Source of the DNA: Dehalococcoidia bacterium
GTDB lineage: Bacteria; Chloroflexota; Dehalococcoidia; SM23-28-2; HRBIN24
Assembly (NCBI GenBank): GCA_025062275.1
Contig: JANXAP010000003.1
Span: 10,950 to 74,949, forward strand
Direction of reading: 5' to 3'
DNA length: 64,000 nt
Shown here: one piece after another, positions 849-59,852 of the stretch
Position numbering within the stretch: position 1 is the stretch's first letter
Layout of the letters: every line of letters begins with the position of its first letter
Notes under the pieces: generated by a model
What the model was told of the DNA's origin: nothing
Seen by the model: only the letters and a program-made list of their open reading frames with translations
Databases searched by the model: none
Made by a program: the position numbers and the translations under genes

Positions 849-910
849 GGCTCCTTCCTTGTGGGGCCGGGGCGGCGGGCCTACACTGAGATGGTGTCCG
901 GGAGCGTGTC

Positions 911-1939
911 ATGAGCGAGCCGATGCGCCTGACGCAGATGGCGTCCTGCGCCGGTTGAGCCGGCAAGCTGGGGCCGGAAGCCCTGGCGCAGGTCCTGCGC
1001 CATCTCAGCGACCATGACCTGACGGGAGGCCGGCCCGACCTGCTGGTGGGCCTGGCCACCCCCGACGACGCCGCCGTCCTGCGCCTGAGCGACGAGCTGG
1101 CGGCGGTGTTGACGGTGGACTTCTTCCCGCCGGTGGTGGACGACCCTTATGACTTCGGGGCCATCGCCGCTGCCAACGCCATGAGCGACGTCTATGCTAT
1201 GGGCGGCGAGGTGGCCCTGGCCCTCAACGTGGCCGCCTTTCCCGAGGACCTGCCCCATGAGGTGGTGGCCCGCATCCTCCAGGGCGGCGCCGACAAGGTG
1301 CGGGAGGCGGGCGGCGTCATAGCCGGCGGGCACTCGGTCATCGACCGGGAGCCCAAGTACGGCCTCTGCGTTCTGGGCCTCGTCCATCCCCAGCAGGTGC
1401 TGACCAAGGGCGGCGCCCAGCCAGGCGATGTGCTGCTGCTGAGCAAGCCGATAGGCACCGGCATCGTCACCACCGCCGGCAAGCAAGGGACAGTGGAGCC
1501 TGGGCACCTGCAAACGGCGGTGGAGTGGATGAAGGCCCTGAACCGACACAGCCTGCACCAGGCCCGGGAGCTGGGCGCCCACGCGGCCACTGACATCACT
1601 GGCTACGGCCTCCTGGGCCATGCCTGGGAAATGGCCCAGGCCAGCGGCCTCCGCCTGCGCATCCGCGCCGGGGCCGTCCCCCTGTTGCCCGGAGTCCTGG
1701 AATATGCCGCCAGGGGGGTCTACTCGGGCGGCGGCCATCGCAATCTGCGCTACTTCGGCCCCCGCGTCCAGATAGACGAATCGCTTCCCGAACCCCTGCG
1801 CTTGGCCCTGTTCGACCCCCAGACCTCGGGCGGCCTGCTGCTGGCCGTGCCCCCACAGGCGGCGGCCCGCCTGGCCGACAGCGGCCTCTGGGCGATAGGC
1901 GAGGTCCTGGAAGGCAACGGGGTGGAGGTGACGCCCTAA
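911..1939 (+). CDS. selD: Selenide, water dikinase (selenophosphate synthetase), selenoprotein form with in-frame TGA (Sec) at 956-958
   Basis: ORF track gives only 1046..1939. Reading back in the same frame from ATG 911 gives MSEPMRLTQMASCAG-U-AGKLGPEALAQV, which aligns to E. coli SelD [26 protein letters not shown] with TGA at the catalytic Cys17 position. The rest of the protein is SelD-like along its length (DFFPPVVDDPYDFGAIAAANAMSDVYAMGG ... DITGYGLLGH ... DPQTSGGLL). GGGAG Shine-Dalgarno lies upstream of 911. Confidence 0.85.
985..1001 (+). promoter_or_regulatory. Candidate SECIS hairpin for selD: GGCGCA-GGUCC-UGCGCC (6-7 bp GC stem, GGU in apical loop) about 30 nt 3' of the UGA
   Basis: Seen directly. 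The loop GGUC resembles the E. coli fdhF SECIS apical loop GGUC. Spacing is longer than in E. coli (G of the loop at +36 versus +23). Confidence 0.45.
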
Positions 1940-3174
1940 TCCGCCAGCGGCCCGCCCAGGGAACGGGCGGCAGCCGCCGCAGGGGCCGCTCCCTGGGCCT
2001 CCAGCCTACGCCACAACAGGTAGAGGGCCATTCCACCGCCCCCGAGCAGGCAGGCCAGCGCCCCCGCTGCCAGCCCGAAGGAACGGTCGGCCAGGTACCC
2101 CAGAAGCGGTGCCGCCGGGGCGAAGACCAGCGCCCCCGACAGCGTCCCCAACGAGCCTATGGTAGCCCGCTGGCCGCTGGGAACGCGGCCGTTGACATAG
2201 TCGCTGAGGAGGGGGCGGGTGGCGGCGAAGACGAAGGCCAGCACGAAGAAGCCCACGGCGGCCTGCAAGGAGTCCCAGACGGCCAGAGCGCCATAGGCGG
2301 CGCCGCCCAGGAGCAACATCGCCGCCACAGCTCGCGAGAGGCCCAGCAGGCCCGACAGCCGGTAGGCCCCCAGGGCACCGACCATGCCCACCAGCCGCAT
2401 GGGCGTCTGCCAGAGCCCCGTCTCCCCGACCTCCACCCCGTGACTGGCCAGGAAGGGCTGCACGAACAGGACCGGCCCCAGGTTGGCCACCGTAGCCGCT
2501 GCCAGCAGGCCGATGGCCGCCGCCAGGGCCGGGTCACCCAGCAGCAGCCGCAACCCGTCCCGGGCCACGGCCAGGAGGGAAGGGGACATCTCGTGACGGA
2601 AGGCCGTCAGGGGCTCTCGGAAGCTCAGGGCCACCAGGGCCGCTGCCAGCGCTATGCCGCTGCTCAGGAAGATGGGCATGCGCAGATCGGTGGCAGCAGC
2701 CACGGGCGCGCCGATGAGGGTTCCCAGGACCATCCCCGCCATGGTGCAGGCGGTGGCGGCCCCCAGAAGACGCACGTACTGGGCGGTGCGGCCCGTGGCC
2801 CGCAGGGTGTCGTACAGGAAGGCGGCATCAGGCCCCCAGGCCATCCCGTAGGATACTCCCCACACCAGATACGACAGCACCAGCAGAGGGAAGCTGTCGG
2901 CCAGCCCGAAGAAGGCGACCGCTGCTGCCTGGGTGAGGGCGGCCAGGGCCAGCACCGGCCGACGTCCCCAGAGGTCGGCCAGCGTTCCGGCAGGCACCTG
3001 GGCCAGGGCGATGCTCAGCCAGAAGGGGACCTCCAGGGCCCCTACCTGGGCCAGGCTGAGGCCTCGCACGTCCTGCAGGTAGAGGACCCAGATGGGCCAC
3101 CACAGCCCGAGGTTGAACAGGAGCTGGTATAGGCAGAGCTTCCAGACGTTGCCCCCGAGCCCGCCGGTGGTCAT
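1936..3174 (-). CDS. MFS transporter
   Basis: 412 aa polytopic membrane protein with MFS-like motif GTLADLWGRRP and 12 predicted TM segments. Confidence 0.75.
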   Translation of the reverse strand: MTTGGLGGNVWKLCLYQLLFNLGLWWPIWVLYLQDVRGLSLAQVGALEVPFWLSIALAQVPAGTLADLWGRRPVLALAALTQAAAVAFFGLADSFPLLVLSYLVWGVSYGMAWGPDAAFLYDTLRATGRTAQYVRLLGAATACTMAGMVLGTLIGAPVAAATDLRMPIFLSSGIALAAALVALSFREPLTAFRHEMSPSLLAVARDGLRLLLGDPALAAAIGLLAAATVANLGPVLFVQPFLASHGVEVGETGLWQTPMRLVGMVGALGAYRLSGLLGLSRAVAAMLLLGGAAYGALAVWDSLQAAVGFFVLAFVFAATRPLLSDYVNGRVPSGQRATIGSLGTLSGALVFAPAAPLLGYLADRSFGLAAGALACLLGGGGMALYLLWRRLEAQGAAPAAAAARSLGGPLAD

Positions 3175-3192: not shown

Positions 3193-3801
3193 CTAGAAGT
3201 CCAGGGCAAAGAAGAAGAGGCCCGGCGCCACCCCACCGATTCCCTCCACCTCGGCGATGTTGGCCAGGATGCCCATCACCAGGGCGAAGGCAGCGAAGCC
3301 GGCCAGAGTGGCCAGCAGGGCATGGCCGGGATCGCCGTCGGAGGCCGACTCCACCGCCACCAGGGATAGCAGCAGCGTGGCCGCCAGGGGAATGACGGCC
3401 AGAGGCACCGCCAGCTGGGCCACGGCCATCAGCACCGTCAGGGCCATGGGGGCGAAGGCCAGCCCCATGGCCCGCACCAGGCCATAGAAGTCGGCCCGCA
3501 CCCCGAAGGCCAGGGTCAAGGTCTGGTAGGTGACGTAGACCCAGAGGAGCCAGGCCGGCACCTGCAACAGGCTGCCCAGAAGGGCCGACTTGACGAACAC
3601 CTCGCCCGCCGCCTCCCGCGACTGGAAAAGCCACCACAGCCAGGAGCCGATGCCGGTGGCGAAGCTGGCTCCCGTCACCAGCGCCAGCATGGGCACGGTG
3701 GCACCGGGATCCGCGGCCACATCGCGGAAGGCGTCCAGGTCCAGGCGCAGGAGCCGCTGCAGCCAGTGGCCCGTGGTAGAGAGGGGTCGTCGCTCCCGCA
3801 T
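3193..3801 (-). CDS. Yip1-family integral membrane protein
   Basis: 202 aa with four or five TM helices after a soluble N-terminus, Yip1/DUF1282-like architecture. Confidence 0.5.
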   Translation of the reverse strand: MRERRPLSTTGHWLQRLLRLDLDAFRDVAADPGATVPMLALVTGASFATGIGSWLWWLFQSREAAGEVFVKSALLGSLLQVPAWLLWVYVTYQTLTLAFGVRADFYGLVRAMGLAFAPMALTVLMAVAQLAVPLAVIPLAATLLLSLVAVESASDGDPGHALLATLAGFAAFALVMGILANIAEVEGIGGVAPGLFFFALDF

Positions 3802-3916
3802 CGCATCACCTCCCTGAGTCGGGTCGCGGGGCCTGGGCCTCGTCTAAGCTTACCGCAGCGGGCGCCTGGGGGGTATCCCGTGAGCCGCTCCGTCCGACGT
3901 CACGTCGGCGCCCTGT

Positions 3917-3948
3917 CCACACAAAAGGGGCCGGCACTCGCCGGCCCC
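3917..3948 (-). terminator. Rho-independent terminator for P450 copy 1 (minus-strand hairpin GGGGCCGGC-GAGU-GCCGGCCCC followed by UUUUGU)
   Basis: 9-bp perfect GC stem at 3927-3948. On the minus strand it is followed by a T-tract (plus-strand acaaaa at 3921-3926). It lies 20 nt 3' of the P450 stop. Confidence 0.7.
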
Positions 3949-3969
3949 CGAGTCTCACCTCGGCCTCGC

Positions 3970-4491
3970 CTAACGCGAGCGGCGGCGAAAGCGGACAGGC
4001 ATGTGCTTGATGCCGTTGATAAAGTTGGAGCGCATGCGCTCCACCGGCCCCACCACCTCCACGTCGTAGGGGCGCGACAGCAGCTCCTCGAACAGCACCC
4101 GCGCCTCCAGCCGCGCCAGAGAGGCACCCAGACAGAAGTGGGGGCCGCCCGCCCCGAACGCCACATGGTCGTTGGGCTGACGGGTGACGATGAAGGCGTC
4201 AGGGTCGGGAAAGACGTCCTCGTCCCGGTTGGCCGAGATGTACCACATGGTCACCCGATCGCCCGCCTTCATGGGCACGCCGCGGAACTCGGTGTCGCGG
4301 GTCACCGTCCGACGCATGTACATGACGGGCGAGACGTAGCGGAGCATCTCCTCCACCGCCGTGGGCATGAGGGAGAGGTCGCTGCGCAGTAGCTCCATCT
4401 GCTCCGGGTGCTCCGTCAGGGCCAGGAGGCCGCCCGAGATGAGGTTGCGGGTGGTCTCGTTGCCCGCCACCGCCAGCAGCACGAACTGGGC
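3970..4491. repeat. Dispersed repeat copy A: P450 3' half, about 94% nucleotide identity to 58593..59114, with a core of about 215 bp that is near-identical
   Basis: Direct comparison of the two stretches. The spurious small ORFs 3900..4166 and 58541..58789 in the track are near-identical reflections of the same repeat. Confidence 0.85.
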
Positions 4492-5238
4492 ATGACGCTC
4501 CAGGGTGGAGAGCTTCTCGCCGTCCACCTCGGCATGCAGGTAGGTGGTAACCAGGTCTTCCTTCGGTTCCCGCAGCCGCTCCTCCTCCAGGCTGTTGAGG
4601 TAGGCGGCCATCTCCATGGCGGCGCCGGCGATGACCCGCCGGAACTGCTCGATGAGGGCCTGGACCTCCTCCTCCGTCTCGGGAGGCTTCTCGATGACGA
4701 TGCCTCCGTACTCGGGGTCGCCGGCCCCGAGGATCTTGTTGCTCCACTCGAATATCTTGTGGCGGTCCTCATGGGGGACGCCCAGGAAGCGGGCGATGAC
4801 CCGCAGGGGCAGCTCGGCCGCCACCTCGGTCACGAAGTCGCACTCGCCCTTGGCGATGGCGTTGTCCAGGAGCTCGTTGACCATCTGGCGGACGTCAGGC
4901 TCCAGGCGGTTGACCATGCGGGGGGTGAAGCCCGTGCTTACCAGTCGCCGCAGCTTGGTGTGGCGGGGCGGGTCGGTGGTGATCATCATCAGGTTCTGGC
5001 TGGGGAAGAACTCCATGGTGGCCAGGGTGATGCCCTTGGCCGAGGAGAAGGTGGCCGTGTCCATGGAGGCCTTCACAAGGTCATCGTACTTGGTGAGCAC
5101 CCAGAACCCGCCCCCCTCCGGGTCGGGGTGCCAGAAGATGGGCGCCTCGCGCCGCAAGAGCTTGAACATGTGATGCGGCGGCCCCTGAACGAAGGTATCG
5201 CCGTCCAGCAGGTCCACATCCTGGAGCTTGAGGGTCAT
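3970..5238 (-). CDS. Cytochrome P450 (copy 1)
   Basis: Heme-binding loop FGAGGPHFCLGASLA, EXXR (EEMLR) and AGNETT I-helix motif. Start MTLKLQDV chosen over upstream in-frame Met at 5307 by alignment with copy 2. Confidence 0.9.
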   Translation of the reverse strand: MTLKLQDVDLLDGDTFVQGPPHHMFKLLRREAPIFWHPDPEGGGFWVLTKYDDLVKASMDTATFSSAKGITLATMEFFPSQNLMMITTDPPRHTKLRRLVSTGFTPRMVNRLEPDVRQMVNELLDNAIAKGECDFVTEVAAELPLRVIARFLGVPHEDRHKIFEWSNKILGAGDPEYGGIVIEKPPETEEEVQALIEQFRRVIAGAAMEMAAYLNSLEEERLREPKEDLVTTYLHAEVDGEKLSTLERHAQFVLLAVAGNETTRNLISGGLLALTEHPEQMELLRSDLSLMPTAVEEMLRYVSPVMYMRRTVTRDTEFRGVPMKAGDRVTMWYISANRDEDVFPDPDAFIVTRQPNDHVAFGAGGPHFCLGASLARLEARVLFEELLSRPYDVEVVGPVERMRSNFINGIKHMPVRFRRRSR

Positions 5239-5353
5239 GGGCCCACCCTCCTTTCGCTTGCCTCCCTTTTCTGGGCACACTCTAAAACTTAGCATTTGCT
5301 TTGTCAATGGCCCATAGCCGGGCCGTTAAGATGGACAGTGTGCAGGGGGAGAC

Positions 5354-6094
5354 ATGAGTGACGGAGAGGGGCGCTCGAGCCTCCCGAAAGGGCCTCTGGT
5401 CATCAGCCATGCAGGCTGCGCCGGCCATGCGCCCGAGAACACCCTCGCCGGCATCGTCAGGGCGCTGGCCCTGGGCGCCGAGGCAGTGGAGGTGGACGTG
5501 AGGGCCACCGCCGACGGCGTCCCGGTCCTGATGCACGACGAGACGCTGGACCGCACCACCGACGGCCATGGGCCTCTCCGCTCCTACCCCTTGGCCAGGC
5601 TGCGACGCCTGGACGCCGGCAGCGGCGAGAGAGTGCCGACCCTGGCCGAGGCAGTGGCCCAGCTGGCGGGGCGCGCCCTCCTGGTGGCCGAGATAAAAGA
5701 GGGAGGGATCGAGCAACAGGTGGAGGCCGCTCTGGCGCCCCTGGGACAGGAGGAGGCCCAGGTCTGGTCCTTCCTGCCCGATGTGCTGGCATCGTACAGG
5801 CGCATCGCCCCTCACCGGCGGACGGTGCTGCTGGCGGAAGCCAGGTCCATGGCACGGTGGCCCGTTCCGCTGCAGTTGGCAAGGGAGGTAGGGGCCGCTG
5901 GCCTGAGCGTGCGCCACGAATGGGTGACAGCGGAAGTGGCCGCCCAGGTCCGGGAAGCGGGGCTGTCCCTCTACGCGTGGACGGCGGACGAGCCGGCTGA
6001 CCTCCGGCGCCTGCTGCTCCTGGGCCTGGACGGCATAGTCTCCAATTACCCCGAGCGGGCGCTCCTGCTGCGTCGCCAGGCGCTGGGCCATTGA
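5354..6094 (+). CDS. Glycerophosphodiester phosphodiesterase (GDPD family)
   Basis: N-terminal GDPD motifs ISHAG...HAPENTLAG...EVDVRATADGVPVLMHDETLDRTT. Confidence 0.8.
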   Translation: MSDGEGRSSLPKGPLVISHAGCAGHAPENTLAGIVRALALGAEAVEVDVRATADGVPVLMHDETLDRTTDGHGPLRSYPLARLRRLDAGSGERVPTLAEAVAQLAGRALLVAEIKEGGIEQQVEAALAPLGQEEAQVWSFLPDVLASYRRIAPHRRTVLLAEARSMARWPVPLQLAREVGAAGLSVRHEWVTAEVAAQVREAGLSLYAWTADEPADLRRLLLLGLDGIVSNYPERALLLRRQALGH

Positions 6095-8237: not shown

Positions 8238-8936
8238 GTGACCCCTCGGGAACAGGGCCAGCCCTTCGGCGGCTTTCCCCCGGGCAGCCTCGCCGTAGCC
8301 GTGCCCACCCCCTTCTTCACCCAGGTGCTGCCGGCCATCGAACGGGTGGAGGAACTGCTGGTCAGCGTCTACTTCTTCTTCGCTCAGGCCCGCACGCGGG
8401 GCGGGCCGCGGGCGATGGCCGAGTCCGAACTCACGGGCGACCCGCTGCTGCTGGAGGCCATGGGCCGCTTCCGGCCCGACGCCGCCGACGGGGTGCGGGA
8501 AGGGCTGGCCCTGGCGGTCCAGCGCGGCACCCTCCTCCAGGCCCAGGACCCGGAGGGAGGGGTCTACTACGCCCTGAACACCCCCTATCATCGCCGCGCC
8601 CTCCAGACGCTGCGCCCGGTGCCGGTGCCTTCGGGAGGCGGGCCAGCCAGCAACATCTTCCGCCTCTATGAGGACAACATCGGCACCATCACCCCCCTCA
8701 TCGCCGAAGAGCTGCGTCAGGCCGAGGAGCGCTATCCCTGGAGCTGGATCGAGGCCGCCTTCCGCGAGGCGGTCGAGCTGAACAAGCGCAGCTGGCGTTA
8801 CATCAAGGCCATCCTGCGCCGTTGGGAAGTGGAGGGGCCATCCCATGAAGCGCCTGGACGAGGTTCTGAGGTCGGCTGGCTGGAGGAGCGCTACCGGCGG
8901 GGCAAGCGGCGAAGGCCCTACAGCTCCTATCTCTGA
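8238..8936 (+). CDS. DnaD-domain replication initiation protein (wHTH N-terminus plus C-terminal DnaD/DDBH2 domain)
   Basis: C-terminal NIFRLYEDNIGTITPLIAEELRQAEERYPWSWIEAAFREAVELNKRSWRYIKAILRRWE carries the DnaD YxxxIxxxW signature. In the track this gene is hidden in the 3' end of the spurious fused ORF 6753..8936. GTG start is uncertain. Confidence 0.65.
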   Translation: MTPREQGQPFGGFPPGSLAVAVPTPFFTQVLPAIERVEELLVSVYFFFAQARTRGGPRAMAESELTGDPLLLEAMGRFRPDAADGVREGLALAVQRGTLLQAQDPEGGVYYALNTPYHRRALQTLRPVPVPSGGGPASNIFRLYEDNIGTITPLIAEELRQAEERYPWSWIEAAFREAVELNKRSWRYIKAILRRWEVEGPSHEAPGRGSEVGWLEERYRRGKRRRPYSSYL

Positions 8937-10227
8937 CGAGGAGGAGCAGCCCTCCTGCCCCCTGTGCGGTGGCGCCGGGCTGGTGCGCAAGGCCGTGCCC
9001 CTGGGCCACCCCGACTTCGGCAAGGCCTTCCCATGCCGTTGCACCCTGGAAGAGGACGCCGAGGCCCGCCGCCAGCGGCTGCAGCGCTTCTCCAACCTCC
9101 GCTTCTACCTGCGCCTTACCTTCGACAACCTGGACCCCCAGGGGCGGGGCCTGGAGGGCGCTGCCGCCCACCGCTATGCCCAGGCGGTGGAGGCCGCCCG
9201 GCAATATGCCGAGAACCCCCGCGGCTTCCTGGTGCTGGCCGGCCCCAGCGGCTGCGGCAAGACCCATCTGGCCGCTGCCGTGGCCAACGCCTGCATAGAG
9301 CGGGGGACCATGGCCCTGTTCATGGCCGTGCCCGACCTGTTGGACCACCTGCGCTCCGCCTACCGTCCCGAGGCCGAGACCACCTACGACGACCTGTTCG
9401 AGCAACTGCGTTCCGTCCCCCTGCTGGTGCTGGACGACCTGGGAGGCCACTCCTCCACCCCCTGGGCCGAGGAGAAGCTCTACCAGCTCATCAACTACCG
9501 CTTCGCCGGCCAGATGCCCACGGTGGTCACCCTAGCGGTGCCGCCGGAGCGGCTGGAGCCGCGGCTGCGCACCCGCCTGTGCGACCCCTCCCTTTCCCAG
9601 GTGCATCTGCTGGGCGACTGGGGGCCGGCAGGGCTGGAGCGCATCGACCACCTGGACTCGCCCCTGCTGCGCACCATGACCTTCGAGAGCTTCGACCCGG
9701 CCCGCATTGCCCGCGACCAGGAAGAGCTGCGCCTGCTGCGGGAGGCCAAGCGGGAAGCTATGCGCTTCGCCCGTCAGCCGCGAGACTGGCTGGTGCTGGC
9801 GGGGCCGCCGGGCAAGGGGAAGACGAGGCTGGCAGCGGCCATCGGCAATTACTGCCGGCAGCGGGGAAGGCCCGTCCTCTTCCTGGTGGTGCCTGACCTG
9901 CTGGACTACCTGCGCTCCACCTTCGATCCCCGCCACGGCCTGGCCTATGACGACACCTTCGAGGCAGTGCGAACGGCGCCGCTGCTGATCCTGGACGACC
10001 TGGGGTCCCACACCGCCACTCCCTGGGCCGAGGAGAAGCTCTACCAGCTCATCAACTACCGCTACAACTGCCTCCTGCCCACCGTCATCACCACCAACCT
10101 GACGGCGTCGCAGCTGGAGCCCAAAGTGAGGGCGAGGCTGACGGACCCCCAGGTGAGCACGGTGCTGCCCATGGGCCGCTTCCAGTTCTACGACGAGGGC
10201 AGAGAGACGGCCGCCCGTCGTCGCTAG
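8845..10227 (+). CDS. DnaI/DnaC-like helicase loader with N-terminal Zn-ribbon and two tandem AAA+ modules
   Basis: CPLCGG...CRC zinc motif, then two homologous modules, each with Walker A (GPSGCGKTHLAAAVA and GPPGKGKTRLAAAIG), Walker B (LLVLDDLG and LLILDDLG) and the repeated WAEEKLYQLINYR. The start overlaps the previous gene by about 90 nt, so it is uncertain. Confidence 0.8.
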   Translation: MKRLDEVLRSAGWRSATGGASGEGPTAPISDEEEQPSCPLCGGAGLVRKAVPLGHPDFGKAFPCRCTLEEDAEARRQRLQRFSNLRFYLRLTFDNLDPQGRGLEGAAAHRYAQAVEAARQYAENPRGFLVLAGPSGCGKTHLAAAVANACIERGTMALFMAVPDLLDHLRSAYRPEAETTYDDLFEQLRSVPLLVLDDLGGHSSTPWAEEKLYQLINYRFAGQMPTVVTLAVPPERLEPRLRTRLCDPSLSQVHLLGDWGPAGLERIDHLDSPLLRTMTFESFDPARIARDQEELRLLREAKREAMRFARQPRDWLVLAGPPGKGKTRLAAAIGNYCRQRGRPVLFLVVPDLLDYLRSTFDPRHGLAYDDTFEAVRTAPLLILDDLGSHTATPWAEEKLYQLINYRYNCLLPTVITTNLTASQLEPKVRARLTDPQVSTVLPMGRFQFYDEGRETAARRR

Positions 10228-17079: not shown

Positions 17080-19164
17080 ATGGACAGGACGCCCATAGAA
17101 CGATTGCGCAACATCGGCATCATCGCCCATATCGATGCCGGCAAGACCACCGTGACGGAGCGGATCCTCTTCTTCACCGGCCGCTCCTACAAGATCGGCG
17201 AGGTGGACGAGGGGACGGCCACCATGGACTATCTGCCCCAGGAGCGGGAGCGGGGCATCACCATCACCGCCGCCGCCACCACCTGCGCCTGGCGCGACCA
17301 CACCATCAACATCGTCGACACCCCGGGCCACGTGGACTTCACGGTGGAGGTGGAGCGCAGCCTGCGGGTGCTGGACGGGGCGGTGGTGGTGTTCGAGGCC
17401 GTCCACGGCGTCCAGAGCCAGTCGGAGACGGTCTGGCGGCAGGCCGACCGCTACCGGGTGCCCCGCATCTGCTTCGTCAACAAGATGGACCGCATGGGGG
17501 CCGACTTCTGGCGCACGGTGGAGATGATCCGCGAGCGGCTGGGGGCGCGGCCGGTGGCCGTCCAGATCCCCATCGGGGCCGAGGACTCCTTCCGCGGGGT
17601 GGTGGACCTCATCGAGGAGGTGGCCTGGGTCTTCCCCGACGACCCGAGGGAGCAGCCCGAGCGCCAGCCCATCCCCTATGAGCTGCGGGAGGAGGCCCGC
17701 CGCCGACGCGAGCAGATGATCGAGGCTCTGGCCGAGGTGGACGACCAGGTGCTCATCAGCTACGTGGAAGGGCACCCCCTCACCCCGGCCGAGATCAAGA
17801 AGGCCATTCGCCGCGCCACCATCGCCTACCTCATCACGCCGGTCCTCTGCGGAGCGGCCCTGCGCAACAAGGGCGTGCAGCCCCTGCTGGACGCCATTGT
17901 GGACTACCTGCCTTCGCCCATCGACCTGCCGCCGGTGCGCGGCACCCACCCCGAGACGGGCGAGACCCTGGAGCGGGCGCCCAGAGAGGACGAGCCCTTC
18001 GCCGCCCTGGCCTTCAAGGTGGTGGCCGACCCCTTCGTGGGGAGGCTGGTCTACTTCCGCGTCTATTCGGGCCGCCTGAAGCAGGGTGCCCAGGTATACA
18101 ACTCCACCCGCCGTCAGCGGGAGCGGCTGGGGCGGCTGATGCGCATGCACGCCAACCGCCGCGAGGACATCGACGAGGTGTCGGCGGGGATGATCGCCGC
18201 CACCGTGGGCCTGAAGAACACCTTTACCGGCGACACCCTCTGCGACGAGCAGGCCCCCATCATCCTGGAGGCCATGAAGTTCCCCGAGCCGGTGGTGTCG
18301 GTGGCCATCGAGCCCCGCACCAAGGACGATCAGGACAAGCTGGCCACCACCCTGGCCCGCATGGCCGAGGAGGACCCCACCTTCCGCTACCGCTACGACC
18401 CCGAGACGGGCCAGACCATCATCTCCGGGATGGGCGAGCTGCACCTGGAGATCATCGTCGACCGCATGCGGCGGGAGTTCGGGGTGGAGGCCCACGTGGG
18501 CCGTCCCGAGGTGGCCTACAAGGAGACCATCACCCGCCCGTCCCGGGCCGAGGGGCGTTTCATCCGCCAGTCGGGCGGCCGCGGCCAGTACGGCGTGGTG
18601 GTCATCGAGGCAGAGCCCCTGCCCCGCGGGTCGGGCTTCGTCTTCGAGGACAAGACCACCGGCGGCGTCATTCCCAAGGAGTTCATCCCGGCGGTGGAGA
18701 AGGGCGTGCGCCAGGCCCTGGACACGGGCGCCCTGGCTGGCTACCCCGTCATCGACGTCAAGGTGACGCTGGTGGACGGCCAGTACCACCCGGTGGACTC
18801 GTCGACCTTCGCCTTCGAGATGGCCGGCGCCCTGGCCATGCAGGAGGCCCTGCGTCAGGGGGCGCCGGTGCTGCTGGAGCCTATCATGCGGGTGGAGATC
18901 GCCACCCCGGAGGAGTTCTTCGGCGACATCCTGGGGGACATAACCGCCCGCCGCGGCCACGTGGTGCAGGTGGACCAGCAAGGGCATCTGCGGCTCATCA
19001 CCGCCCTCATACCCCTGGCCGAGCTGTTCAACTACGCCACCGACCTGCGCTCCCTGTCCCAGGGTCGGGCCACCTACACCATGGAGTTCGACCATTACGA
19101 GCCGTTGCCCCAGTCCCTGGCCGATGCCATCGCCGGCCGGGTGCGGGGGGCTGTGCGGAGGTAG
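17080..19164 (+). CDS. fusA: Elongation factor G
   Basis: G-domain motifs [17 protein letters not shown] and NKMD. 694 aa. Confidence 0.97.

Positions 19165-28247: not shown

Positions 28248-28264
<17 letters not shown>
27794..28264 (+). CDS. rplO: 50S ribosomal protein L15
   Basis: Gly/Arg-rich L15 N-terminus RGRGIKGQKARAG. Confidence 0.93.
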
Positions 28265-29615
<1,351 letters not shown>

Positions 29616-32933: not shown

Positions 32934-34217
32934 TTGAGGTTTGGAGGTGGGTCTGCCTTGACCCTGCAAGAGGTGCTCGAACTGCCCCGCATCGAGATCG
33001 AGGAGGACCAGGGCGATTACGCCCGGGTAGTGGTGGCGCCCCTGCTGCCCGGCTTCGGCATCACCCTGGGCAACTCCCTGCGCCGGGTGCTCCTGAGCTC
33101 CCTGCCCGGGGCAGCCATCACCCAGGTGCTCATCGAGGGGGTGCTGCACGAGTTCTCCACCATACCCCACGTCAAGGAGGACACCATCGAGTTCCTCCTG
33201 AACGTGAAGGCCATCCGGCTGCGGGCCCTGTCCGACCGTCCGGCCACCCTGGTGCTGGACATCCAGGGGCGGGAAGGGGAGATAACCGCCGCCGACATCC
33301 AGGTCCCCGAGCACATCGAGGTGGTAAACCCCGAGCAGCACCTGCTCACCGTGGACTCTCCCGAGGCCCGTCTGCACATCGAGTTCACGGTGGAGACGGG
33401 CCGCGGCTACCGTCCCGCCAGCCAGACCGATGGCCTGCCCATAGGCACCATCGCTGTGGACGCCATCTTCACCCCTGTGCGCCGCGTCAGCTACCGGGTG
33501 GAGCCCACCCGCGTGGGGCAGGCCAGCAACTATGACCGCCTGATACTGGAGGTGTGGACCGACGGCACCGTGGGTGCGGTGGAGGCCGTCAGCCGCGGCG
33601 CCGACATGCTCCTGCAACACCTGCGGCTGTTCACCAGCATGGGCCGCGCTGCCGCCCCGGTCCTCAGCCGCGGCATCGGTGCTGGCCTCCTGATCTCCGA
33701 GGACCAGTACAATATGCCCATCGACGACCTGGACCTCTCCATGCGGACCTACAACTGCCTGCGCCGCAGCGGCATCACCACCGTGGGACAGGTCCTGGAG
33801 CGCACCGAGGAGGAGCTGCTGTCCCTGCGCAACTTCGGCCGCAAGTCCTACGAAGAGCTGAGACAGCGCCTGGCCGAGCTGGGCATCCTTCCTCTGACGG
33901 CCGAGACCCTGACGGGCGCCACCGAAGAGGAAGAAGAGGAGGAGCTGGCTGAGGAGGGGGAGCTGGCCGAAGAGGCGCAGCCCGAGGCGGCCGCCCCGGC
34001 CGAGGCTGTCCAGGAACCGGTCGCGGAGGCCCCGCCCGAGGCGGAGATGAAGGCGCCGACCCCCAAGGAGGAGAAGAAGCGGGAGCGGCGCAAGGAGAAG
34101 GCCCCAGCCGAGACCATCGCCGGCGGCGACGGCCAGGAGGCGCCCGAGGCCGAGGAGATCGATCCCCGCTGGGCCAAGCTGCGGGAGCTCAAGCAACAGG
34201 CAGAGGAAGAGGAGTGA
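32934..34217 (+). CDS. rpoA: DNA-directed RNA polymerase subunit alpha, with about 95-aa low-complexity acidic/Lys-rich C-terminal extension
   Basis: Alpha NTD and CTD (MRTYNCLRRSGITTVGQVLERTEEELLSLRNFGRKS) followed by an EEEEEE...KKRERRKEK tail. Start uncertain (ATG 32934 or TTG about 32958). Confidence 0.93.
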   Translation: MRFGGGSALTLQEVLELPRIEIEEDQGDYARVVVAPLLPGFGITLGNSLRRVLLSSLPGAAITQVLIEGVLHEFSTIPHVKEDTIEFLLNVKAIRLRALSDRPATLVLDIQGREGEITAADIQVPEHIEVVNPEQHLLTVDSPEARLHIEFTVETGRGYRPASQTDGLPIGTIAVDAIFTPVRRVSYRVEPTRVGQASNYDRLILEVWTDGTVGAVEAVSRGADMLLQHLRLFTSMGRAAAPVLSRGIGAGLLISEDQYNMPIDDLDLSMRTYNCLRRSGITTVGQVLERTEEELLSLRNFGRKSYEELRQRLAELGILPLTAETLTGATEEEEEEELAEEGELAEEAQPEAAAPAEAVQEPVAEAPPEAEMKAPTPKEEKKRERRKEKAPAETIAGGDGQEAPEAEEIDPRWAKLRELKQQAEEEE

Positions 34218-48286: not shown

Positions 48287-48427
48287 CCTCTCGCCTCGGC
48301 AAGCCTATGCTATCCTCCCGCGGCGGGGACGTCCACCTGCTGCGATACTTGACTTACTCCATCGATAAAGTCCACAATTGGGACATGCCCCTCCGTGGAG
48401 GCCGACCGACCAGGAGGTGAACCGACC

Positions 48428-49813
48428 ATGGCGCTTTTCCGACCCGACCCCACCTTCTACCCTTCGCCGCGGCTGGCCATGCAGGCCCCGCCCGAGACCC
48501 TGGCCTATGTGGCCCTGCTGAATGTAGGCAACGGCCGCCCCGATGCCCTGGCCGTGGTGGACGTGGACCCCAGGTCGTCCAGCTATGGCCAGGTCGTCGA
48601 CCGGCTGGAGCTGCCCAACGTGGGCGACGAGCTGCACCACTTCGGCTGGAACGCCTGCTCCTCGGCCCTGTGCCCCCACATGCCCCATCCCCACCTGGAG
48701 CGGCGTTACCTGCTGGTGCCTGGCCTGCGCTCCTCCCGCATCTACGTGGTGGACACGCGGCCCGACCCCGCCAGGCCGCGCATCGTCAAGACCATCGAGC
48801 CCGAGGAGGTCAAGGGGCGGGCAGGCTACTCCCGCCTGCACACCGTCCACTGCGGCCTGGACGGCATCTACATCTCGGCCCTGGGCGGGGCCGACGGCGA
48901 CGGCCCCGGCGGCATCCTGGTGCTGGACCACGACACCTTCGAGGTGCTGGGCCGCTGGGAGATCGACCGTGGCGACCAGTTCCTGGCCTACGACTTCTGG
49001 TGGCACCTGGCCCACGACGTGGTGGTGACCAGCGAGTGGGCCACCCCCGATCTGTTCGAGAACGGCCTGCGGCTGGAAGACCTGGTGGGGCGCCGCTTCG
49101 GCCACCGCCTCCACTTCTGGGACGCGCGCCGACGCAAGAAGGTGGCCACCGTCGACTTCGGCGACGAGCACCAGATGGTGCTGGAACTGCGTCCTGCCCA
49201 CGACCCCACCAAGACCTACGGCTTCGTCAACGTGGTGGTGAACGTCAACGACCTGTCCAGCTCCATCTGGGTCTGGCACCGAGACAACGGCTCCTGGGCG
49301 GCGCGCAAGGTCATCGAGATCCCCGCCCAGCCGGCCGATAAGGACAAGCTGCCGCCGGCCCTCCAGGACGTGGGCGCGGTGCCGCCCCTGGTCACCGACA
49401 TCAACCTGTCCCTGGACGACCGCTTCCTCTACGTGTCCTGCTGGGGCACCGGCGAGCTGCGCCAGTACGACGTCAGCGACCCCTTCAGTCCCAAGCTGGT
49501 TTCCACCGTGAAGCTGGGCGGCATCGTCGACCCCGGCGCCCACCCTGCCGGCCACGTCCTGACGGGCGGCCCGCAGATGGTGGAGGTCTCCCGCGATGGC
49601 CGCCGCGTCTACGTCACCAACTCCCTCTACAGCTCCTGGGACGTCCAGTTCTATCCGCAGGGCCTCAGGGGCTGGCTGGTGAAGCTGGACGTGGGCGCCG
49701 AGGGGGGCATGGAGGTGGACAGGGACTTCTTCGTGGACTTCGGCGAGGCGCGGGCCCACCAGGTGCGGCTGCTGGGCGGCGACGCTTCGTCCGACTCCTT
49801 CTGCTATCCGTAG
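48428..49813 (+). CDS. Selenium-binding protein SBP56 family (methanethiol-oxidase-like), cytoplasmic form
   Basis: Aligns with human SELENBP1 along its length (ATVDVDP...DELHHFGWNACSS...SSRIYVVD...ITDINLSLDDRFLYVSCWGTGELRQYD...GGPQMVEVSRDGRRVYVTNSLYSSWDVQFYP...GGDASSD). No signal peptide. AGGAGGTGA Shine-Dalgarno before ATG 48428. Confidence 0.9.
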   Translation: MALFRPDPTFYPSPRLAMQAPPETLAYVALLNVGNGRPDALAVVDVDPRSSSYGQVVDRLELPNVGDELHHFGWNACSSALCPHMPHPHLERRYLLVPGLRSSRIYVVDTRPDPARPRIVKTIEPEEVKGRAGYSRLHTVHCGLDGIYISALGGADGDGPGGILVLDHDTFEVLGRWEIDRGDQFLAYDFWWHLAHDVVVTSEWATPDLFENGLRLEDLVGRRFGHRLHFWDARRRKKVATVDFGDEHQMVLELRPAHDPTKTYGFVNVVVNVNDLSSSIWVWHRDNGSWAARKVIEIPAQPADKDKLPPALQDVGAVPPLVTDINLSLDDRFLYVSCWGTGELRQYDVSDPFSPKLVSTVKLGGIVDPGAHPAGHVLTGGPQMVEVSRDGRRVYVTNSLYSSWDVQFYPQGLRGWLVKLDVGAEGGMEVDRDFFVDFGEARAHQVRLLGGDASSDSFCYP

Positions 49814-58592: not shown

Positions 58593-59114
58593 CTAGCGGG
58601 AGCGGCGGCGGAAGCGGACGGGCATGTGCTTGATGCCGCTGACGAAATTGGAGCGGAGCCACTCCACCGGCCCCACCACCTCCACGTCGTAGGGGCGCGA
58701 CAGCAGCTCCTCGAACAGCACCCGCGCCTCCAGCCGCGCCAGAGAGGCACCCAGGCAGAAGTGGGGGCCGCCCGCCCCGAACGCCACATGGTCGTTGGGC
58801 TGACGGGTGACGATGAAGGCGTCAGGGTCGGGAAAGACGTCCTCGTCCCGGTTGGCCGAGACGTACCACATGGTCACCCGGTCGCCAGCCTTCATGGGCA
58901 CGCCGCGCACTTCCGTGTCTCGGGTGACGATGCGCGCCATGTACATGACGGGCGAGACGTAGCGGAGCATCTCCTCCACTGCCGTGGGCACCAGCGAGAG
59001 GTCGCTGCGCAGCAGCTCCATCTGCTCCGGGTGCTCCGTCAGGGCCAAGAGGCCGCCCGAGATGAGGTTGCGGGTGGTCTCGTTGCCCGCCACCGTCAGC
59101 AGCACGAACTGGGC
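58593..59114. repeat. Dispersed repeat copy B (P450 3' half)
   Basis: See copy A. Confidence 0.85.
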
Positions 59115-59852
59115 GAACCGCTCCAGATCGCTCAGCCTCTCGCCGTCCACCTCGGCGTTCAGGTACACCGTCACCAGGTCTTCCTTCGGCTCGCGCATTC
59201 GCTCCTCTTCCAGCCGCCGAAGGTAAGAGGCCATCGCGGCGATGGTGTTCTCGGAGCGACGGACGAACTGCTGCGGCGCCGGAGCCGCCTCGGCCTCGGT
59301 CGTTCCGGCACGGCTGTACTCGGGGTCCATGGCGCCGATCAGGGCGTTGCTCCATTCAAAGATGAGGTGTCGGTCCTCTTTGGGAACGCCGATGAAGCGG
59401 GCGATGACCAGGAGGGGTAGCTGGGACGATACCTCGGTGACGAAGTCGCACTCACCCTTGGCGATGGCGCTGTCCAACAACTCGTTCACGATCTCGCGGA
59501 TGTCGGGCTCGAGGAGGCTTATCATGCGCGGCGTGAACCCGGGGCTCACGAGACGCCGCAGTTTGGTGTGCCGGGGCGGGTCCGTGGTCACCATCATGGG
59601 GAACTGGTTGGGGCTCACGATGGATTCCAGGGTGATACCCCTGGACGAGGAGAAGGTAGACGTGTTCATGGAGACCTTCACCAGGTCCTCGTACTTGGTG
59701 AGAACCCAGAAGCCTCCCGCGACGGGGTCGGGATGCCAGTAGACGGGAGCCTGCTGGCGCAGGACCTTGAAAAGGTGATGGGGCGGCCCCGAAAGGAAGA
59801 CGTCCAGGTCCAGGAGGTTGACGTCCTTCAGCTCGGTCGTCATCGGTCTCAC
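58593..59852 (-). CDS. Cytochrome P450 (copy 2, paralog of 3970..5238)
   Basis: Same heme loop FGAGGPHFCLGASLA. C-terminal 150 aa is about 97% identical to copy 1, N-terminal half about 70%. Start at M1 or at MTTELKDV (59843). Confidence 0.9.
   Translation of the reverse strand: MRPMTTELKDVNLLDLDVFLSGPPHHLFKVLRQQAPVYWHPDPVAGGFWVLTKYEDLVKVSMNTSTFSSSRGITLESIVSPNQFPMMVTTDPPRHTKLRRLVSPGFTPRMISLLEPDIREIVNELLDSAIAKGECDFVTEVSSQLPLLVIARFIGVPKEDRHLIFEWSNALIGAMDPEYSRAGTTEAEAAPAPQQFVRRSENTIAAMASYLRRLEEERMREPKEDLVTVYLNAEVDGERLSDLERFAQFVLLTVAGNETTRNLISGGLLALTEHPEQMELLRSDLSLVPTAVEEMLRYVSPVMYMARIVTRDTEVRGVPMKAGDRVTMWYVSANRDEDVFPDPDAFIVTRQPNDHVAFGAGGPHFCLGASLARLEARVLFEELLSRPYDVEVVGPVEWLRSNFVSGIKHMPVRFRRRSR

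Follow-up and report, generated by a model that had tools for sequence, protein, structure and literature searches.

SelD is, after or together with FdhA, the second most widespread selenoprotein family of bacteria and accounts for 38 of the 285 selenoproteins described by Zhang et al. (2006) (PMC1794560; PMC13188914). In the same study Chloroflexi were already listed with selenoproteins (PMC1794560), and in BSepDB, Dehalococcoidia MAGs rank with the genomes richest in selenoproteins (PMC13326102). Sec-containing SelD proteins are found in Haemophilus influenzae, Aquifex aeolicus, Deltaproteobacteria and Clostridia, and the selD gene described here shares with them the protein family, the Sec position in the N-terminal glycine-rich loop and an in-frame hairpin after the UGA. 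The native proteins of A. aeolicus and H. influenzae carry Sec. The locus differs from these known cases in its host, an uncultured, Dehalococcoidia-like member of the Chloroflexota with about 70% G+C, and in having two adjacent hairpins instead of one. The gene also stands alone and forms no operon with selA, selB or ybbB. Around the active site, A. aeolicus SelD (PDB 2yye) reads SSG-C-AAK where the protein studied here reads AG-U-AGK. The E. coli enzyme (3u0o), of which 333 residues can be aligned including RLTQ...AG-C/U-x-x-K, has a cysteine encoded by UGC at this position and needs no recoding (GAGCGCK versus SCAGUAGK). A further difference is the location of the second cysteine, which in E. 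coli SelD follows the catalytic one (GCGCK), whereas here Cys13 precedes Sec16.

For the recoding signal, the closest described elements are the SECIS hairpins of E. coli fdhF and Moorella thermoacetica fdhA, which have, like the hairpin that we call H2, a G-GUC-C apex on a G+C-rich stem. The G and the U of the fdhF/fdhA loop are the bases contacted by SelB, and in E. coli fdhF the SECIS base lies 11 nt and the loop about 18 nt after the UGA. H2 differs from the fdhF element in that it has no bulged U and is placed further downstream (base 26 nt, loop 33 nt after the UGA), with a second hairpin, H1, filling the gap. A more general description is given by the bSECIS model of Zhang and Gladyshev, summarised in PMC13188914, which allows a loop of 3-9 nt, a stem of 4-16 bp and a UGA-to-loop spacing of 16-37 nt, and which expects one of the first two loop nucleotides to be a G, as a rule with G or U next to it.

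We analysed a 64-kb stretch of DNA, hereafter the window, and show here that its selD gene begins upstream of the position used in public gene calls and contains an in-frame UGA. The features on which the reading frame depends are:

900-904, plus strand: Shine-Dalgarno-like GGGAG, with a 6-nt spacer to the ATG at 911-913
911-1939, plus strand: full selD coding sequence, 342 residues including the predicted Sec16, then TAA at 1937-1939
947-949, plus strand: TGC codon of Cys13, which would form a C-x-x-U motif with Sec16 (SCAGUAGK, 947-958)
956-958, plus strand: in-frame UGA, the putative Sec codon (residue 16), placed on E. coli Cys17 and TGA in 67 of 80 relatives
965-967, plus strand: codon of Lys19, aligned with the catalytic Lys20 of E. 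coli SelD and made only if the UGA is read through
1046-1048, plus strand: GTG start used by ORF finders and public gene calls, giving 297 residues with Val46 as the first

In translation, the TGA at 956-958 is the sole internal one of the frame 911-1939, which reads MSEPMRLTQMASCAG-TGA-AGKLGPEALAQVLRHL... at this point. For HMM scoring, Cys was put in place of the TGA in the 342-residue translation. The full translation matched the NCBIfam profile TIGR00476 (selD) with 371.2 bits against a cutoff of 125, and residues 6-317 covered profile positions 1-310. The match thus begins upstream of the TGA and, as it starts at the first profile position, the stretch 5' of the TGA belongs to the SelD family. 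A second profile, NF002098, gave 333.9 bits (cutoff 299), and precomputed Pfam matches to AIRS (PF00586) and AIRS_C (PF02769) exist for the identical 297-residue product and for all homologues. The best structural match in a phmmer search was E. coli SelD 3u0o (E = 6e-72, residues 4-336), with U16 aligned to Cys17 and K19 to Lys20. By family membership the gene at 911-1939 is a complete selenide, water dikinase (SelD), for which ATP-dependent synthesis of selenophosphate is the predicted activity. The original prediction had placed the start at ATG 911 behind GGGAG and the UGA on the active-site cysteine of E. coli SelD, and had proposed a family search with the 342-residue translation; direct reading, the alignment to 3u0o and the profile match upstream of the TGA agree with it on all of these points.

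Conservation of the UGA was followed in 80 related loci, obtained in a scan with one genome per species and all from assemblies of uncultured genomes; their labels are mostly Chloroflexota (Dehalococcoidia, Anaerolineae and others), besides bacterium HR24 and a few others. The homologous codon is TGA in 67 and TGC in 13 of them. Cysteine stands in the UGA column in these 13 loci and in 83 Cys-type database proteins, and both flanks of the column are conserved. In every TGA relative an ATG lies 13-16 codons 5' of the TGA, and the peptide RLT-x-x-(A/T)S-(C/A)-AG is conserved. Over the 12 codons 5' of the TGA, differences from the window number 22 at first, 8 at second and 39 at third codon positions, as is typical of coding sequence. 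Missing conservation upstream of 1046 in relatives had been named beforehand as an observation that would speak against a selenoprotein; the opposite is seen, with start, frame and peptide all conserved. The commonest local form among the relatives is SCAG-U/C, the other being SAAG-U. Many Anaerolineae relatives have SAAGUAAK and lack an equivalent of Cys13. Of 64 complete gene calls in the window, 27 end normally at a TGA; the genetic code is therefore the standard one, and recoding, where it happens, has to be local. When other genes of the window were inspected for in-frame TGA codons, the only cases were neighbouring genes that share a frame and have starts of their own, and there was no second selenoprotein candidate. 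Taken with the hairpin described below, which is specific to TGA genes, the 67 to 13 split and the upstream coding pattern support the central claim of the original prediction, that selD is itself a selenoprotein. Residue 16 is very probably a selenocysteine, specified by the UGA and inserted with the help of a hairpin in the coding sequence.

Two hairpins follow the UGA directly within the coding sequence:

970-984, plus strand: H1, GGGGC-CGGAA-GCCCU, 5 bp including one G.U pair and a 5-nt loop, auxiliary or alternative SECIS candidate
985-1001, plus strand: H2, GGCGCAG-GUC-CUGCGCC, 7 bp, loop at 992-994 and 33 nt after the UGA, best SECIS candidate

The stem of H2 is perfect over its 7 bp. 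Folded alone, H2 reaches -11.3 kcal/mol (z = -3.45), and none of 200 shuffled sequences folded equally well; its exact 17-mer occurs once per strand in the 64-kb window. The apex is formed by G991-G992-U993-C994-C995, and this GGUC-type loop exposes a G and a U. Among the 68 Sec-type genes the loop U (alignment column 41) never varies and the G before it (column 40) is conserved to 90% or more, while a bulged U in the H2 position is found only in three of them (L039, L058 and L076). With its 7-bp stem, the loop GUC and the spacing of 33 nt, H2 fits the bSECIS model. RNAalifold predicted no consensus pairs for the 68-sequence alignment, and we therefore relied on explicit pair counts in an ungapped alignment of the 68 Sec-type genes and on synonymous-recoding controls. 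In these counts, 90% of the H2 cells are paired, and the real register is 84% paired overall compared to 37-53% for slid registers. Two-sided changes were seen in five of the seven pairs, for example CAG/CUG to CAA/UUG or CAC/GUG and GCG/CGC to GAG/CUU. In the GAG/CUU variant the amino acids change too and the pairing is kept.

Most TGA genes have all seven H2 pairs, compared to none of the 13 TGC genes, and in the TGC genes L043 and L059 the stem is incomplete despite an identical peptide, LAQVLRP. Because the hairpins lie in coding sequence, coding constraint was controlled for by resampling synonymous codons from each gene's own usage. In the window, all seven H2 pairs arose in 6% of such recodings and the folding energy was reached in 3% (p = 0.03). 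The median p value of this control for H2 is 0.04 in TGA genes versus 0.37 in TGC genes (Mann-Whitney p = 6e-6), where, as in all comparative hairpin statistics given here, related sequences count as independent and the Cys-type controls number only 13. Rfam searches of the hairpin region at gathering and permissive thresholds returned no family, only chance miRNA-like matches. The SECIS-like hairpin with apical GGUCC that had been predicted at 985-1001 thus holds up as a 7-bp stem with compensatory changes that is specific to TGA genes, and H2 is the probable SelB-binding SECIS candidate of the window. We regard this function of H2 as likely and not as proven, because H1 also conforms to the bSECIS rules and matches the predicted SelD SECIS of another phylum.

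The alternative that fares best is indeed that H1 is the functional SECIS, with H2 as a pause site or stabiliser or as a lineage-specific by-product. H1 starts 11 nt and its loop lies 16 nt after the UGA, near the spacing of the fdhF element, and with a 5-bp stem and the loop CGGAA it fits the bSECIS model. Moreover, the SECIS that BSepDB predicts for SelD of Acetomicrobium mobile, UGAGCAGCCAAAUUGGGUCCGGCGGACCUC..., has the same position and sequence type as H1 of the window (PMC13326102). Among the relatives, TGA genes also have a more stable H1 than TGC genes (Mann-Whitney p = 8e-4). The tally of hairpins among the Sec-type genes is six loci with H1 only, about ten with H2 only and both in the remainder. 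The six TGA loci without H2 in the first 66 nt after the UGA (L036, L040, L047, L049, L055 and L063) have a strong H1 of the type GGGUCC-N3-5-GGACCU with rule-conforming loops (GUU, CGGGC or CGUGC), and encode the peptide GP-x-DLE(K/R)(I/L/V)L in place of ...LAQVLR. Since these genes keep a strong, rule-conforming H1, the position of the SECIS is suggested to differ between lineages. Against a SECIS function of H1 at this locus stands its weakness in the window, where it reaches -6.9 kcal/mol and is not unusual among synonymous recodings (p = 0.41). In 25 of the 48 loci having both hairpins the H1 loop lacks a G in its first two positions, whereas the H2 loop conforms to this rule in 58 of the 68 Sec-type genes. 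The invariant G-U loop dinucleotide and the larger number of compensatory changes likewise belong to H2. We therefore consider it unlikely that H1 rather than H2 serves as the SECIS here.

With H2 retained as the likeliest SelB-binding element, a plausible sequence of events is that, as the ribosome nears the UGA at 956-958, the hairpin within the coding part of the mRNA would recruit SelB-GTP-Sec-tRNA(Sec), and Sec would be inserted instead of termination. With the apical G-GUC-C of H2, the two conserved bases, G and U, would come to lie in the loop. H1 directly abuts H2 on its 5' side with no spacer, and would probably act as a spacer or auxiliary element; it may also mark the ancestral position of the SelD SECIS. 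While the bSECIS model is a single stem-loop, most Chloroflexota Sec-type selD genes have two abutting conserved stem-loops. It is tempting to view these as a two-hairpin recoding module from which different lineages may use either H1 or H2 for SelB, a proposal that we put forward only tentatively. Equally speculative is the assignment of roles within it, in which H1, 16-17 nt after the UGA, would be the 'ancestral' hairpin and H2 the more conserved one, with a G-GUN-C loop at 33 nt. If the two-hairpin reading were true, H1 would serve as a spacer, compact or coaxially stacked, by which SelB could get to a SECIS close to the upper limit of the known 16-37 nt spacing. What the data show directly is the reading frame, the protein family, the conservation of the UGA and of the two hairpins, and the link of these hairpins to UGA rather than UGC genes.

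Other pairings around the UGA were considered as well. The 3' arm of H2 (994-1001) has an exact copy upstream of the UGA:

945-952, plus strand: CCTGCGCC, within the Ser-Cys-Ala codons

In the absence of a ribosome this copy could pair with 985-992. Folding with upstream context gives -39.5 kcal/mol (z = -2.95), with CCTGCGCC paired to the 5' arm of H2 and the UGA enclosed. The full 8/8 match between 945-952 and 985-992 is found only in the window and ten relatives, mostly near ones (L001-L004, L014, L024), and a translating ribosome would melt the pairing. We rejected this long-range pairing as incidental; the copy is a side-effect of the Ser-Cys-Ala codons. A hairpin with the UGA in its loop (950-964, GCCGGU-UGA-GCCGGC) was also discarded, as it is explained by Ala and Gly codons (mean synonymous-recoding p = 0.45). 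A consensus scan for promoters and terminators around selD found nothing.

Genes for the Sec machinery were searched for in the window and beyond it. The 64-kb window has no tRNA-Sec, selA or selB, and the same holds for about 9 kb to its left (L082) and about 8.5 kb to its right (L088) on same-species contigs. In tblastn searches with E. coli SelA and SelB queries, SelA was found at none of the loci, and the window gave no SelB match; with the SelB of a relative as query six SelB candidates were traced, none of them from assemblies of this species. In the window, selD is flanked on one side by a divergent gene for an HhH-GPD glycosylase and on the other by a convergent one for an MFS transporter. 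Among relatives, parts of the Sec machinery do accompany TGA-selD. In two Chloroflexota MAGs a true tRNA-Sec gene (UCA; Rfam RF01852, 69-71 bits) is found directly upstream of a TGA-containing selD (L070, 5827-5923; L073, 1831-1927), a compact selC-selD arrangement that is absent from the window. SelB adjoins selD in L061 (TIGR00475, 346 bits) and in L037, and one of the six SelB candidates, P0240, shares its MAG (CAZFGZ01) with the TGA-selD of L080. For the window itself we infer that SelB binds, that Sec is really inserted, and that selA, selB and selC are encoded in another part of the genome.

The UGA could in principle be read as Cys or another standard amino acid, either by a selC* tRNA-Cys working with a SelB-type factor or by near-cognate read-through. 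Passages of Mukai et al. document selC* tRNA-Cys genes (GCA or UCA) beside selB*, and describe the suppression of a selD UGA by a selC*-type tRNA in E. coli (PMC5389517). The taxa named in these passages are mainly Deltaproteobacteria and Nitrospirae (PMC5389517). Among the relatives, L061, a MAG of the Thermoflexales, contains a tRNA-Sec-like gene of 93 nt (2976-3068) with the anticodon loop CU-GCA-AA and a discriminator U, a Cys identity; it scores below the Rfam gathering thresholds for both tRNA and tRNA-Sec. Immediately downstream of this gene follows a bona fide selB (3212-5110), and a selD with a TGA (at 6040) is about 1 kb away; the tRNA gene and selB together resemble the selC* tRNA-Cys and selB* pairs described by Mukai et al. 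(PMC5389517). The L061 tRNA would, however, read UGC and not UGA, the window has no selC*-like feature, and in L070 and L073 it is a true UCA tRNA-Sec that adjoins the TGA-selD. Furthermore, TGA and TGC have replaced each other repeatedly in the family, and the TGC genes have lost the hairpin, as is classic for Sec/Cys exchange; decoding of the UGA as a standard amino acid is highly improbable.

More improbable still is a genuine stop, by which selD would be a pseudogene or would yield the 297-residue product from GTG 1046 without the catalytic loop. This product is what all public gene calls contain, and no Sec machinery was found nearby. The shortened protein would, however, lack U16 and K19, the counterparts of Cys17 and Lys20 in the E. 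coli enzyme. As both lie upstream of Val46, the catalytic loop would be gone, just as had been predicted for the loss of the catalytic N-terminus. The Shine-Dalgarno nearest to GTG 1046 is GGGAGG at 1024-1029, too far away at 16 nt to be usable, and the GTG start is best seen as an artefact of taking the UGA as a stop. A stop codon would also leave the start codon, the frame and the 15 upstream codons conserved in 67 TGA relatives with a coding pattern, and it would assign no role to the conserved TGA-specific hairpin. That sequencing or assembly turned a TGC, only one base apart, into the TGA by mistake is a negligible possibility, since five independent same-species contigs (NCBI, ENA and Logan; different samples), which differ mutually by a synonymous CTG/CTC polymorphism near the TGA, all carry TGA, as do 67 of 80 related genomes.

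The truncated reading is widespread in databases. The same 297-residue product appears in the public gene calls of six same-species contigs, and an identical product is found on 16 contigs; one of the same-species assemblies (GCA_030550375.1, contig JAUQPM010000005.1) is 99.6% identical to the window over the overlap. Among the best 120 database matches, 37 are Sec-type proteins, all of them truncated at the N-terminus and none written with U, as anticipated by the suggestion that annotation pipelines mishandle Sec genes. Mis-annotation of Sec-containing genes has been documented in the BSepDB paper (PMC13326102). Because the gene calls are truncated and the catalytic loop is gone, conclusions on selenium use that are drawn from protein catalogues miss or mis-describe this lineage. 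A literature search with the accessions of the same-species assemblies found nothing.

Several genes give an impression of the genomic context:

3970-5307 and 58593-59852, minus strand: two CYP119/SolI-like cytochrome P450 genes
8845-10224, plus strand: 460-residue ORF as listed, with two DnaC/IstB-like ATPase stretches, downstream of dnaB
15.2-34.6 kb, plus strand: core chromosomal block, with EF-G (17080-19164), SecY (28248-29615) and RpoA (32934-34217) confirmed
48395-49810, plus strand: 472-residue protein with a weak match to MtoX methanethiol oxidase/selenium-binding protein (117 bits against a cutoff of 650)

The core block with EF-G, SecY and RpoA indicates that the window is chromosomal and not part of a mobile element, and the short genes between these three are probably a ribosomal-protein operon. 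In public gene calls the region 8845-10224 is represented by a 243-residue DnaB_2-domain protein and a 414-residue IstB-like ATPase. Just to the right of the window, same-species contigs carry genes for a protoglobin and a weakly matching cupredoxin-like protein (L087, L088). Together with the two P450 genes, these suggest an aerobic lifestyle of this probably Sec-using, Dehalococcoidia-like organism.

The call of a Sec-containing selD is correct and ordinary, as Sec-containing SelD is already textbook knowledge, and it opens no long-standing question. The conserved tandem hairpins, of which the one with the GGUN loop lies close to the upper limit of the accepted spacing range, are the only mildly new feature and offer a modest lead for specialists on SECIS and SelB. 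For the organism, the gene makes it probable that an apparently aerobic, high-G+C, Dehalococcoidia-like bacterium is a selenocysteine user. Its Sec machinery would then itself depend on a selenoprotein, an autocatalytic arrangement that is already present in the literature.
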